From: a virus
UHGV virus genome: UHGV-0285531
Strand: one strand, 5' to 3'
Length of the DNA: 39,467 nt
Position 1 is the first letter of the stretch. Each line of letters starts with the position of its first letter. The notes beneath the pieces were generated by a model. The model was not told the origin of the DNA. It saw only the letters and a list, made by a program, of their open reading frames with translations, and ran no database searches. This document shows, in pieces, positions 25,339 through 31,468 of this stretch. Position numbers and translations under genes: made by a program.

Positions 25339-25356
25339 ACTATCACCTTAGGGATG
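25334..25356 (+). promoter_or_regulatory. phage RNAP promoter variant (phi4-like), +1 G at 25351
   Basis: cctaaactatcacCTtagggatg: two substitutions at -4/-3; transcript begins with a GGGAC...GUCCC hairpin. Confidence 0.5.
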
Positions 25357-27576: not shown

Positions 27577-29748
27577 ATGTTTGACCTTAAGAGTATCTGG
27601 GGTTCTGACATCGAGACCAACGGTCTCCTTGATACAGTCTCCCAGTTCCACTGTGGGGTCCTGATTAACGCCGAGTCGAATGAGACCCTTAAGTACGGGG
27701 TAGCTCCGATGGTCGGTATCGTCGGTGGCTTCAAAGAGTATGTTCATAAAGTTGAAGAGATTGCCGCATCGCCTGATGGTATGCTGGTATTCCACAACGG
27801 TATCAACTATGACGTCCCGGCTATAGACAAGCTGAAGCGTTTGTACTTTGGGAAACGCTTTAACTTCCCGAAACATAAGATGATTGATACCTTGGTACTG
27901 GGACGCTTGCTGTATCCAAACATTAAGTTCTCAGACATGGGCGCAGTGAAAGCTGGTCGTCTGCCACCTAAGATGATGGGACGCCAGTCTCTTGAGGCTT
28001 GGGGCTATCGTCTCGGTGAGATGAAAGGTGAGTACAAACACGATTACGTTGCCAAGTGCAAGGCTGAAGGTATCGAATATAAGGCTGGGGACGAATGGTT
28101 GTTCCCGTCTCAGGAGATGCTGGACTATAACGTTCAAGACGTTGTGGTCACACTGGCGTTGTTCAAGAAGTTCCTGACTGACAAGTATTACTTCCAGTCT
28201 GAACAGTTCGCTTTCGACCAGATTTATGCGTTGCGTCTGGAACATGATGCTGCGTGGACCTGTGCGAAGATGGAACGTAACGGCTATCCGATGAACACCG
28301 AGATGGTCGAAGGCTTATATCGTGAACTCACCGTCAAACGTGCAGAGCTGCTGGACAAGCTGCGTTCGACTTTCGGTAGCTGGTACGCACCAAAGGGAGG
28401 CAAGGAGTTCTTCAGGCATCCACGGACAGGCAAGGACCTTCCGAAGTACCCACGAGTCGTGTATCCTAAGGTCGGGTCAGTATTCAAGAAGCCGAAGAAC
28501 AAAGCTCAACGCTTAGGTCTGGAGCCTTGCGAGTTTGACTCACGAGACACGATGGAGGGAGCACCGTTCACACCTATCACTTACGTTGAGTTTAATCCGG
28601 GAAGCGGAGACCACTTAGCGAAAGTCTTGATGGAGCGTGGTTGGGAGCCTGTGGACTTCACTGACACTGGGAAACCTGTAGTCGATGATGAGACGTTAGA
28701 GCACGTTAAGTTACCGGACGCAGAGGCTCAGGATTGCGTAGAGCTGGTCCGTGAGTATCTGGTAGTCCAGAAGCGCATAGGTCAGGCGGCTGAAGGTAAT
28801 AACGCATGGTTGAAACTTGTAGGTCCAGACGGACGTATGCACGGTTCAATCAACCCTTGTGGAGCAGTAACCGGACGTGCGACCCATAGTTCACCAAACA
28901 TGGCTCAGGTCCCTGCTAACGGTGCTCCGTATGGTGAGATTTGCCGTGGTGCTTTCGGTGCAGCTTGGAACAAGACGGATGGTAAGCCAGACCCTTGGAT
29001 TCAAGTGGGTGTGGATGCTTCAGGTCTTGAGCTTCGTTGTCTTGGGAACCGAGCGGCTCCGTTTGATGGTGGTGCCTATGCGAAGACTGTGGTCGAAGGT
29101 GACATCCACTGGGCCAATGCAGTAAACGCTGGGTTAGCACCTAACGTCCCACGCGATAAGTCGAGCCACGACCATGATGCTTTCCGTAACAACGCTAAGA
29201 CGTTCATCTATGCGTTCCTATATGGTGCAGGGGCCGCTAAGATTGGACTGATAGTAGGCGGTGGGAAGAAGGAAGGTTCAGCTCTCATGAAGAAATTCAT
29301 TGAGGGTACACCAGCCATCAAAGACCTCAGGGAAGCTGTGAGTAATACGTTAATCTCAGACTCTAAGTGGGTGGACGGAGAGAACATCGTTAAGTGGAAA
29401 CGCCGTTGGCTGCGTGGACTTGATGGTCGCCGTATCCACATCCGGTCGCCACACTCAGCACTGAACGCCTTACTTCAAGGCGATGGTGCGGTAGTCTGTA
29501 AGCACTGGATTGTCGAGACTGAACGTATGCTCGAAGAGGCAGGGTATGTTCACGGCTGGGAAGGTGACTTTGCGTACATGGCTTGGGTGCATGATGAATT
29601 GCAGATTGCGTGTCGTACTCAGGAGATTGCCGAAGAAGTCGTCAAGATTGCGCAACTTGCTATGCGTAAGGTGGGTGAGTTCTATAACTTTAAATGTGTC
29701 CTTGATACCGAAGGTAAGATTGGACCAACGTGGAAGGAGTGTCACTAA
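27577..29748 (+). CDS. 5: DNA polymerase (T7 gp5-like, family A with 3'-5' exonuclease)
   Basis: Track ORF 27541 (GTG, inside hairpin element) to 29748; preferred ATG 27577 (ACGGAGGA upstream; MFDLKSIWGSDIETNGL); recollected identity to T7 gp5 throughout (VFHNG..YDVPA, YNVQDVVVT, GAVTGRATH, GIDASGLELRCL, DNAKTFIYGFLYGAG, AWVHDE). Confidence 0.95.
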   Translation: MFDLKSIWGSDIETNGLLDTVSQFHCGVLINAESNETLKYGVAPMVGIVGGFKEYVHKVEEIAASPDGMLVFHNGINYDVPAIDKLKRLYFGKRFNFPKHKMIDTLVLGRLLYPNIKFSDMGAVKAGRLPPKMMGRQSLEAWGYRLGEMKGEYKHDYVAKCKAEGIEYKAGDEWLFPSQEMLDYNVQDVVVTLALFKKFLTDKYYFQSEQFAFDQIYALRLEHDAAWTCAKMERNGYPMNTEMVEGLYRELTVKRAELLDKLRSTFGSWYAPKGGKEFFRHPRTGKDLPKYPRVVYPKVGSVFKKPKNKAQRLGLEPCEFDSRDTMEGAPFTPITYVEFNPGSGDHLAKVLMERGWEPVDFTDTGKPVVDDETLEHVKLPDAEAQDCVELVREYLVVQKRIGQAAEGNNAWLKLVGPDGRMHGSINPCGAVTGRATHSSPNMAQVPANGAPYGEICRGAFGAAWNKTDGKPDPWIQVGVDASGLELRCLGNRAAPFDGGAYAKTVVEGDIHWANAVNAGLAPNVPRDKSSHDHDAFRNNAKTFIYAFLYGAGAAKIGLIVGGGKKEGSALMKKFIEGTPAIKDLREAVSNTLISDSKWVDGENIVKWKRRWLRGLDGRRIHIRSPHSALNALLQGDGAVVCKHWIVETERMLEEAGYVHGWEGDFAYMAWVHDELQIACRTQEIAEEVVKIAQLAMRKVGEFYNFKCVLDTEGKIGPTWKECH

Positions 29749-30032
29749 TGGCTATTACTAAACGTATTCGTGTGAGTTTTGACCTGAAGATGGTTGTTAG
29801 CTCAGAGGAAGAAGAGACCATTTGTCGTCAGCTTGCTAAGATGACTAAAACCTACGCTGAGGGTGAGAAGCTGGATGGACTTCAGTTGGCTGTGGCCAAA
29901 ACAGCAATCGAGTCAGGCCCTGAGTCTGCCCTTGAAATTGTCGCCAAGAAGAACATCAAGAAGGAGCTGGTAGGCGCCTTTGGTGATGGCCAGTTCGGTG
30001 TGTCCAACCTGCGATTCGAGGTCAAGCAATGA
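29748..30032 (+). CDS. 5.5: gp5.5-like protein (H-NS-binding protein homologue)
   Basis: Track ORF 29730-30032; preferred ATG 29748 overlapping gp5 stop (GGAAGGAG upstream); MAITKRIRVSFD resembles recollected T7 gp5.5 start. Confidence 0.55.
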   Translation: MAITKRIRVSFDLKMVVSSEEEETICRQLAKMTKTYAEGEKLDGLQLAVAKTAIESGPESALEIVAKKNIKKELVGAFGDGQFGVSNLRFEVKQ

Positions 30033-30238
30033 GTGAATACTTACGGGTCCTAGCGGCCCTTAAGTCCTGCCCGAAGACCTTCCAGTCCAACTATGTGCGC
30101 AACAACGCTGCACTGGTGGCTGAGGCTGCGAGTCGTGGACATCTAAGCTGCCTGTCTATGGACGGGCGTAACAACGGTGCGTGGGAGATTACTGCTGCTG
30201 GCACCAAGTTCCTGAACCAACACGGAGGCTGTTTATGA
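30029..30238 (+). CDS. 5.7: gp5.7-like protein
   Basis: 69 aa; LKSCPKTFQSNYVRNNAALVAEAASRGH.SCL...GAWEITAAGTKFL matches recollected T7 gp5.7. Confidence 0.7.
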   Translation: MSEYLRVLAALKSCPKTFQSNYVRNNAALVAEAASRGHLSCLSMDGRNNGAWEITAAGTKFLNQHGGCL

Positions 30239-30453
30239 GTCAAGACGTATCAGGCAGAGAACTTAAGGTAGGTCAAAAAGTTGCTTTCTGCCTAGCTGGT
30301 AAGTCATACGCTATGTGTATAGGCAAAGTCATCCGAGTAATGCCAAAGACGGTAGCCATCAAACACGAGACGTATACCCGCTGGAATGGAATGACTGAGG
30401 AAGTCGAAACGGTACGTGCCTTCTCTTCAGTTTGCATCGTTGAGGAGGCATAA
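30235..30453 (+). CDS. hypothetical protein (72 aa) at the T7 gp5.9 position
   Basis: Track ORF 30181-30453; preferred ATG 30235 overlapping gp5.7 stop, GGAGG upstream; no resemblance to recollected T7 gp5.9. Confidence 0.45.
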   Translation: MSQDVSGRELKVGQKVAFCLAGKSYAMCIGKVIRVMPKTVAIKHETYTRWNGMTEEVETVRAFSSVCIVEEA

Positions 30454-31319
30454 TGTCAGAGAAGAAAATAGCTCTGGTTCTGGATGGTGACTACTTAGTG
30501 TTTTCGTCTATGGCTGCTGCCGAGGAAGAGACAGACTGGGGTGATGACATCTGGACCCTTATCTGCGACCACGCCAAGGCTCGTCGTATCCTTGAGAACA
30601 CCATCGCTGAAATCGTTAAGAAGCGCAAGGCGTGGAAAGACTCTAAGATTGTGATGTGCTTTACTGACGATAACAACTGGCGTAAGGACGTTCTGCCTAC
30701 CTATAAGGCCAACCGTAAAGGTTCTCGCAAGCCTGTAGGTTACAAGAAGTTCGTAGCCGAAGTGATGGCTGACCCACGGTTCAACAGCTTCTTGCGTCCT
30801 ACGCTTGAGGGTGATGACTGTATGGGCATCATCGGGACCCGACCTCAGATTGTCGGATGTGACCATGCGGTTCTGGTGTCCTGTGACAAGGACTTCAAGA
30901 CCATCCCAAACTGTGAGTTCTTCTGGTTAACCACTGGTGAAATCCTGAGTCATACGACTGCTGAGGCAGACTACTGGCACATGGAGCAGACCATCAAGGG
31001 TGACACTACAGATGGCTATGGCGGGATTCCGGGGATGGGTGAGGACACTACTCGTGTGTTCCTTGACGAGCCGTACTACTTCGTGCAGGAGAGCCGTGAG
31101 CTTAAGACTGGCAAGAACAAAGGCCAGATTAAGACTGAGTGGAAGAAGTATCCAAAGCGTGAAGACATGACGCTGTGGGACTGCATGGTTACTCTGGCTG
31201 CTAAAGCTGGGATGACCGAGGAGGAACTTCTGGTCCAAGCTCAGGTCGCTCGTATTTGTCGAGCCTCCGACTATGACCCTAAGTCCAAGGAGGTCATCCT
31301 GTGGACACCATCCATGTAA
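30453..31319 (+). CDS. 6: 5'-3' exonuclease (T7 gp6-like)
   Basis: 288 aa; position and size as T7 gp6; FEN-type acidic residue clusters (LDGDYL, DDN, CDKDF). Confidence 0.85.
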   Translation: MSEKKIALVLDGDYLVFSSMAAAEEETDWGDDIWTLICDHAKARRILENTIAEIVKKRKAWKDSKIVMCFTDDNNWRKDVLPTYKANRKGSRKPVGYKKFVAEVMADPRFNSFLRPTLEGDDCMGIIGTRPQIVGCDHAVLVSCDKDFKTIPNCEFFWLTTGEILSHTTAEADYWHMEQTIKGDTTDGYGGIPGMGEDTTRVFLDEPYYFVQESRELKTGKNKGQIKTEWKKYPKREDMTLWDCMVTLAAKAGMTEEELLVQAQVARICRASDYDPKSKEVILWTPSM

Positions 31320-31445: not shown

Positions 31446-31468
31446 ACTAAACTATCACTATAGGGACT
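31446..31468 (+). promoter_or_regulatory. phage RNAP promoter (phi6.5-like), +1 G at 31463
   Basis: cactaaactatcactatagggactt. Confidence 0.75.

Follow-up and report, generated by a model that had tools for sequence, protein, structure and literature searches.

A predicted beta-barrel protein of the DUF7205 family at the gp5.7-gene 6 junction of a K1F-like phage, and its recurrence beside and fused to gp5.9 in other T7-like phages

Introduction

RecBCD occupies a central place in bacterial immunity, and the phage proteins that inhibit it, Gam, gp5.9 and Abc2, are recombineering tools as well as triggers of retron-type defences. Gp5.9 of phage T7 inhibits MukBEF besides RecBCD, and Abc2 of phage P22 leaves DNA binding unblocked and requires host PpiB. 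To our knowledge, a recognisable RecBCD inhibitor is missing from many T7-like phages, among them the K1F group, which has therapeutic relevance.

The described inhibitors work in different ways. Gp5.9 is an acidic (pI 4.0) DNA mimic that forms a dimeric parallel coiled coil, and in the structure of the RecBCD-gp5.9 complex its N-terminus lies near the RecB/RecC core, DNA mimics being known as structurally diverse (PMC9836394). Abc2 is no DNA mimic; it acts on RecBCD through protein contact with RecC (PMC9836394). In T7, gp5.9 (PF25708; PDB 8B1R) is a small class II accessory protein encoded between genes 5.7 and 6. In this study, the ORF that takes the same position in a virus genome of 39,467 nucleotides (UHGV-0285531; the whole stretch is hereafter called the window) was analysed by comparative genomics, profile searches and structure prediction.

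Results and discussion

The 72-aa ORF is a real gene at the gp5.7-gene 6 junction

The window is a K1F-like T7 relative (Kayfunavirus) and appears to be a complete, circularly permuted genome beginning inside the structural genes. The 1.9-kb region around the ORF matches 267 phage records, mostly from Escherichia and Salmonella Kayfunavirus, with best identities of 95-97%. The ORF lies on the plus strand at 30235..30453, from an ATG at 30235 to a TAA ending at 30453 (72 codons plus stop), with a Shine-Dalgarno sequence GGAGG (30224..30228, plus strand) 6 bases 5' of the ATG. Upstream are a gp5.5-like gene (29748..30032, plus strand; phrog_1452, E 6e-25), which we take to belong to the H-NS inhibitor family, and a 69-aa gp5.7 homologue (30029..30238, plus strand; phrog_1334, E 7e-39; phrog_17900, E 4.5e-46), whose TGA stop shares bases with the ORF start (ATGA). 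Downstream is the 288-aa 5'-3' exonuclease of gene 6 (30453..31319, plus strand; phrog_107, E 2e-80; PF02739), whose ATG shares bases with the TAA of the ORF (TAATG). An earlier note on this DNA had placed a 72-aa gene in the gp5.9 slot, with gp5.7 upstream and the exonuclease downstream; the ribosome-binding site, the coupled ends and the profile matches of both neighbours bear this out. A longer version of the ORF starting from a GTG (30181, 90 aa) is not supported, because its homologues begin at the ATG-equivalent position.

The orthologues from EcoDS1, P762 and BUCT788 are 89-97% identical to the 72-aa protein and occupy the same slot. Compared with them, the ORF has a dN/dS of 0.07-0.43, and the most diverged pairs (dS about 0.6-0.7) give 0.07-0.09. 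The 72-aa ORF is a real gene under purifying selection. Its small size and its dispensable slot could also fit a chance ORF or a decaying remnant, but a non-functional ORF is hardly credible given the strong ribosome-binding site, the coupled start and stop, the low dN/dS, the homologues of ~40% identity in distant phage groups and the confidently predicted fold.

To place the gene in its transcriptional context, the window was scanned with the core of the EcoDS1 phi6.5 promoter, ACTATCACTATAGGGA, allowing up to 3 mismatches. As a result, 11 phage-RNAP promoter-like sites were found, all on the plus strand (351, 7627, 13882, 16660, 19738, 21784, 22987, 25339, 31451, 34272 and 35272), against 0.33 expected by chance. 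The nearest site upstream of the ORF is at 25339..25354 (plus strand), and a phi6.5-type promoter with an exact match lies 3' of gene 6 at 31451..31466 (plus strand). The ORF thus probably belongs to a class II polycistronic unit that extends from 25339 to the next promoter, the class II timing being deduced from the promoter positions and the known class II genes of T7. No sigma-70 promoter, terminator or Rfam family was found in or beside the ORF. Between 29000 and 32000, sigma-70-like matches were below the number expected by chance, and the sole promoter-like match is weak, on the minus strand at ~31400, 3' of gene 6.

The 72-aa protein is not a diverged gp5.9

The T7 gp5.9 sequence used for comparison agrees with PDB 8b1r_P over all 52 residues. 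BLASTP of the 72-aa ORF against it returned no alignment at E<=100, and tblastn for gp5.9 in the window returned nothing below E 0.17. A gp5.9-family HMM made from T7 gp5.9 and 86 database members (87 sequences in all), which recovers the gp5.9 proteins of T7, JSS2 and 536_P3, reached at best 6.6 bits over all frames of the window and detected no homologue there. In the reverse direction, a profile of the 72-aa protein's own family (alignment A2) scores gp5.9 at -1 bit. A diverged gp5.9 is therefore ruled out as the identity of the ORF by BLASTP, tblastn and HMM, and tblastn and HMM reveal no gp5.9 elsewhere in the window. The earlier note had seen no resemblance to gp5.9 and had named homology to a diverged gp5.9 as a result that would refute its reading; its observation stands, and no such homology was found.

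The two proteins also differ in nature. T7 gp5.9 is an acidic alpha-helical coiled coil (computed pI 4.08, net charge -8.5), whereas the 72-aa protein is slightly basic (pI 8.53, net charge +1.6; 8 D+E versus 10 K+R), predicted to be all-beta and without sequence similarity to gp5.9. In tblastn searches, T7-type gp5.9 was found only in phages of the T7/T3/Yersinia type; a diverged gp5.9 of the YeO3-12/Berlin type was found in Teetrevirus, Berlinvirus and Przondovirus. Kayfunavirus is absent from both of these listings.

The protein belongs to DUF7205, a family of predicted small barrels

The 72-aa protein matches phrog_2251 ("unknown function") with an E value of 7.8e-22 over residues 2-71. 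PF23835.2, which is DUF7205, is the precomputed Pfam annotation of a database protein with 100% identity (P0001) and of all relatives; this assignment depends on the model version, because the older local model PF23835.1 misses the 72-aa protein at E<=1. The family is small, with 40 cluster representatives among 1.84 billion at E<=1e-3 when searched with a profile of close orthologues. Its members are single-domain proteins of 60-85 aa that have in common an N-terminal motif D-x-x-G-R-x-L-x-V-G-D/Q-x-V-A-F-C, a P-K-T-V turn and a conserved Arg ahead of the last strand. The 72-aa protein carries the N-terminal motif as D-x-x-G-x-x-L-x-V-G and has the P-K-T-V turn, and conservation reaches 90% or more at D4, G7, G13, V16, K38, V40 and R61 over the 43 sequences of alignment A2. 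It resembles other members, for example AS9_0028 of EcoDS1, ASC_0027 of K11 and gp165c of PAK_P1, in size, predicted barrel and early/middle DNA-metabolism setting, and nothing material differs. The ORF belongs to a family that is catalogued but uncharacterised, and annotations of the ORF's orthologues have read 'unknown product' since the EcoDS1 genome. Literature searches for DUF7205, PF23835, phrog_2251 or PF24203 by name, and for Kayfunavirus with gp5.9 or K1F with RecBCD, found nothing, and the protein is absent from the accessory genes in the preprint supplements of Silas et al. No second DUF7205 copy was found in the window, and T7 has no paralogue of the barrel. A sub-threshold Pfam match of the 72-aa protein to CusF_Ec was dismissed.

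AlphaFold2, run on the 43-sequence alignment, predicts a stand-alone barrel of five strands with no helix of four residues or more (mean pLDDT 93.9). The earlier note had proposed a search for DNA-mimic features by structure prediction; such features did not appear, the protein being slightly basic (pI 8.5) and a predicted all-beta barrel. The predicted barrel can be superposed on solved Tudor/KOW/SH3-like members and resembles KOW, Tudor and ribosomal eL21/eL27 barrels at the level of fold. With Tudor, KOW, PWWP and SH3-like barrels (KOW of Spt5 and NusG; Tudor of SMN and TDRD3) it has 8-21% identity, a likeness at fold level only. Foldseek of the 72-aa protein model against the PDB gave nothing below E 1e-3, and its matches in BFVD are all uncharacterised phage proteins. 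Single-sequence and profile searches of PDB sequences were uninformative, the sole match below E 0.01 being a 33-residue stretch of 3fzx, a putative exported protein. No family member matches Pfam KOW at E<=1, and the sole Tudor-type Pfam match among the members is sub-threshold (Tudor_1_RapA, E 0.18).

The C-terminal domain (CTD) of ProQ is also grouped with the Tudor/KOW/SH3-like small barrels. Matches to Pfam Phage_ProQ_C_like (PF24203) were found for 14 of the 43 members, all short of the gathering threshold of 27 bits (15.6-19.4 bits for the listed scores; best E 1.6e-4), and the 72-aa window protein itself gave no match to this model. Homology to the ProQ CTD was rejected: a likeness of motifs is visible, but the hhalign comparison with the E. 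coli ProQ CTD, the sequence of which was confirmed against PDB 5nbb, is not significant (E 0.18). The 72-aa barrel has no catalytic features, and its putative action is almost certainly to bind something.

DUF7205 is found in replication modules of diverse phages

A locus search with the close alignment recovered three near-identical loci only, and the wider family extends to distant phages. Proteins of ~40% identity are present in about 170 records of Pseudomonas Pakpunavirus myophages; in PAK_P1 the DUF7205 gene lies in a run of small ORFs near the genes for dCMP deaminase and ligase. In the Drulisvirus phiKpS2 the member is located between the exonuclease and endonuclease VII genes, in Ralstonia phage RSB2 and Pseudomonas phage phTUNSv between the RNAP/ligase region and the SSB gene, and in metagenomic phages among replication genes. 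Moreover, distant phrog_2251 members hold the 5.7-6 junction in other Studiervirinae, including 68-aa proteins in K11 and other Przondovirus and in the Teseptimavirus KKE5P, and a 69-aa protein in the Berlinvirus JSS2. A 91-aa phrog_2251 form occurs in CY1-type Kayfunavirus (32% identity, pairwise E 7e-7). The A2 profile scores the CY1, K11 and JSS2 barrels at 33-43 bits.

DUF7205 occurs beside gp5.9 and fused to it

In several phages a DUF7205 gene is accompanied by gp5.9. The gene order is 5.7, gp5.9 (61 aa, pI 4.1), barrel and 6 in JSS2, and 5.7, barrel, ORF58, gp5.9 (55 aa) and 6 in BIS33 (L044:1495-2034). At a different locus, in OR687459.1, the order is gp2, barrel (67 aa), gp5.9 (81 aa), ORF112 and gp2.5. 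DUF7205 and gp5.9 are thus not mutually exclusive, since an intact gp5.9 occurs together with a DUF7205 member in JSS2, BIS33 and OR687459.1. The order 5.7, barrel, gp5.9 and 6 is also found in 536_P3, a record flagged UNVERIFIED, in which an in-frame TGA interrupts the gp5.9-like ORF (L014:1725-1892) at the position of a Trp in its relatives (GVDN*), which points either to a pseudogene or to a sequencing error.

In uncultured T7-like phages the two proteins are fused, with the barrel N-terminal and gp5.9 C-terminal. A 126-aa fusion (P0059) is located at the gene 2 locus in 5 contigs from 5 sequencing runs (L029-L033), and Pfam PF25708 matches its gp5.9 half with 42.9 bits (cut-off 24.5). Two other fusions occupy the 5.7-6 slot, one of 104 aa (P0109; L039-L041) in 6 contigs and one of 101 aa (P0170; L042) in a 40.4-kb contig. 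P0109 and P0170 are 64% identical and have the junction in common, indicating that this fusion has been kept through divergence. Both halves of the fusions score on independent HMMs and are opposite in charge, the barrel part being basic at pI 9.6-9.8 and the gp5.9 part acidic at about 4.1, and AlphaFold2 predicts for P0109 a confident barrel that runs straight into a helix. The barrel-gp5.9 fusions comprise at least three proteins in two or more independent lineages. Fusion to gp5.9 is not specific to the barrel, because deletion fusions gp5.5::5.9 (P0146) and gp5.7::5.9 (P0065) also exist. Nevertheless, the occurrence of this neighbourhood at two loci together with the recurrent fusion makes a role of DUF7205 in the process in which gp5.9 acts plausible. 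We found no description of a link between DUF7205 and gp5.9 in the searchable literature.

The gp5.7-gene 6 slot is a hot-spot of cassette exchange

The contents of the slot were surveyed with the empty junction of ST1749 as query, in a sample of 60 records spread over the 223 that matched. Five or more alternative contents, the empty slot included, were found at the position corresponding to 30224-30466 of the window (L003, L004, L016, L017 and L018). The slot is empty, with 5.7 and 6 contiguous, in K1F itself and others (about 15 records of the sample), and holds 218 additional bp with the 72-aa gene in EcoDS1, P762, GA2A and others (about 8 records). An insert of 325 bp encodes a 110-aa protein (pI 4.3, net charge -15) in ST66 (about 7 records), and one of 442 bp encodes the 151-aa gp28 (pI 4.4, net charge -17) of phiYIO1-1 (about 11 records); a few records have the 91-aa barrel (CY1 type) or a 127-bp remnant (TM1). 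The cassette boundaries are exact in the junction alignment (A3), with a shared start GGAGG-N6-ATGAG and an end just before gene 6 ...AGTGAGAAGAAAAT, so that the 3' end of the cassette directly precedes codon 2 of gene 6. In the empty-slot phages gene 6 has a GTG start at the shared GGAGG, and the sequence at 30224..30228 corresponds to what in these relatives is the direct ribosome-binding site of gene 6. Given that the slot is a cassette hot-spot and is empty in K1F, its occupation by a gene is a weak indication of what that gene does.

In Przondovirus, all combinations of the barrel, the basic 58-aa ORF58 and the gp5.9-like 55-aa ORF are found in the 5.7-6 slot, the full set of three in only 9 of the 164 records that matched. 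The adjacency of barrel and gp5.9 in this genus may therefore be coincidental. Whatever the function of the barrel, the 5.7-6 junction lends itself to use as a natural insertion site and offers a compact model for accessory-gene exchange in Studiervirinae.

The slot proteins of ST66 (L016:457-789) and phiYIO1-1 (gp28, L017:457-912) are unrelated and strongly acidic; they fall in phrog_18166/phrog_2294 and phrog_4382 and have no Pfam match. By composition, these two cassettes are better candidates for a DNA mimic or gp5.9 analogue than the 72-aa barrel.

Possible functions of the barrel

We tentatively favour a role of the 72-aa protein as a binder, other than a DNA mimic, in the arena of RecBCD and DNA ends, a reading that is possible though short of probable. 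In this proposal, the ORF would be a dispensable, horizontally exchanged accessory gene of class II, the DNA-metabolism phase, translated from the polycistronic message between gp5.7 and gene 6. Its product would be a stoichiometric binder, neither an enzyme nor a DNA mimic, and the candidate target would be the host double-strand DNA end machinery, with RecBCD as the prime candidate. Where gp5.9 is present, the barrel would complement it through a different contact surface and would not substitute for it, and in the window phage it would act on its own, gp5.9 being absent there. The role of a partner rather than a substitute is suggested because the family co-occurs with gp5.9 instead of replacing it. 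By analogy with the RecBCD-gp5.9 structure, a barrel fused to gp5.9 would be placed near the RecB/RecC core. P22 Abc2, as a small phage binder of RecBCD, may be regarded as a precedent for such a mechanism; PDB sequence searches detected no homology between it and the barrel. Several findings run counter to the proposal. Besides the free combination of genes in Przondovirus, the fusions of gp5.9 with other neighbours and the lack of an informative solved homologue, most DUF7205 members are found without gp5.9 and at varied positions of the replication module (Pakpunavirus, Drulisvirus, and Ralstonia and Pseudomonas podoviruses), and the barrel fold is generic, being equally typical of RNA or ssDNA binders. 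The more specific idea that DUF7205 proteins are previously unrecognised non-mimic antagonists of RecBCD or another DNA-end complex, docking near the RecB/RecC core through protein-protein contact and working either alone, as in the window phage, or beside or fused to gp5.9 as a bipartite inhibitor, is speculative and rather unlikely as it stands.

Among the alternatives, the barrel could be a host-takeover or anti-defence cassette that has nothing to do with gp5.9 and has another host target, for example a defence component or a transcription or translation factor of the kind contacted by KOW or Tudor domains, its link with gp5.9 merely reflecting hot-spots that both use. The hypervariability of the slot, with its five or more alternative contents, the free combination of genes in Przondovirus and the occurrence of DUF7205 within runs of small uncharacterised ORFs at differing positions all agree with this, as does the report that highly variable accessory regions of phages cluster anti-defence genes (bioRxiv 10.1101/2023.04.06.535777). 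We nevertheless place it on the unlikely side, since barrel and gp5.9 are also neighbours at a second, unrelated locus and there are two or more independent fusion lineages, one of them kept through 36% divergence; PADLOC gave no match for the 72-aa protein, though its library is without anti-defence genes. The barrel might instead bind RNA or ssDNA in the manner of the ProQ CTD, KOW or Sm-like proteins and modulate RNA of phage or host, or replication/recombination intermediates. Its fold matches KOW, Tudor and eL21/eL27 barrels, a third of the members (14 of 43) show the sub-threshold similarity to Phage_ProQ_C_like, the domain is mildly basic and more so in the fusions (pI 9.6-9.8), the genes lie in replication modules, often within a few kb of DNA ligase, a proximity that is given no weight here, and one relative has a CxxC...CxxC zinc-ribbon-like tail. 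Against these stand the hhalign E value of 0.18 for the ProQ CTD, the lack of any PDB profile match or KOW Pfam match, and a net charge of just +1.6, some relatives being neutral or even acidic, and we consider a nucleic-acid binder of this kind unlikely.

A strict substitute for gp5.9, blocking RecBCD by DNA mimicry in the same manner with a different fold, is very improbable. The T7 gene 5.9 position is occupied in a phage that has no gp5.9, and DNA mimics are diverse in structure (PMC9836394), but the pI of 8.5 and net charge of +1.6 contrast with a pI of about 4 for gp5.9 and Gam (PMC9836394), the family co-occurs with intact gp5.9 in several phages, the slot is empty in K1F and many relatives, and the acidic cassettes (pI 4.3-4.4, net charge -15 to -17) fit mimicry better. 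The earlier suggestion of an analogous nuclease inhibitor of a different fold thus keeps its different fold, as predicted here, and gains from the link with gp5.9, but loses the role of substitute. If DUF7205 does act on RecBCD or a related complex, as in the proposal that we favour, this would explain how T7-like phages lacking a known inhibitor cope, would represent a new structural solution, a beta-barrel binder instead of an acidic mimic, and would provide a function for a widespread family.

Architectural variants and gene neighbourhood

Some relatives deviate from the single-domain form. In P0018 the barrel is followed by the C-terminal CxxC...CxxC zinc-ribbon-like tail, and in P0024 and P0034 it is preceded by an N-terminal extension of about 75 aa. 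On the side of gp5.9, the motif LEAGGVDNW[DE][GW]Y is present in two tandem copies in acidic proteins of 135-221 aa (P0145, P0163, P0168 and P0176), which suggests that the YeO3-12/Berlin branch within the gp5.9 family contains a module that can be repeated; T7 gp5.9 is without this motif. In addition, a DNA ligase gene lies 0-4 kb from the DUF7205 gene in several unrelated phages (L024, L009, L008, L027 and L025), which may simply reflect their common residence in the replication module.
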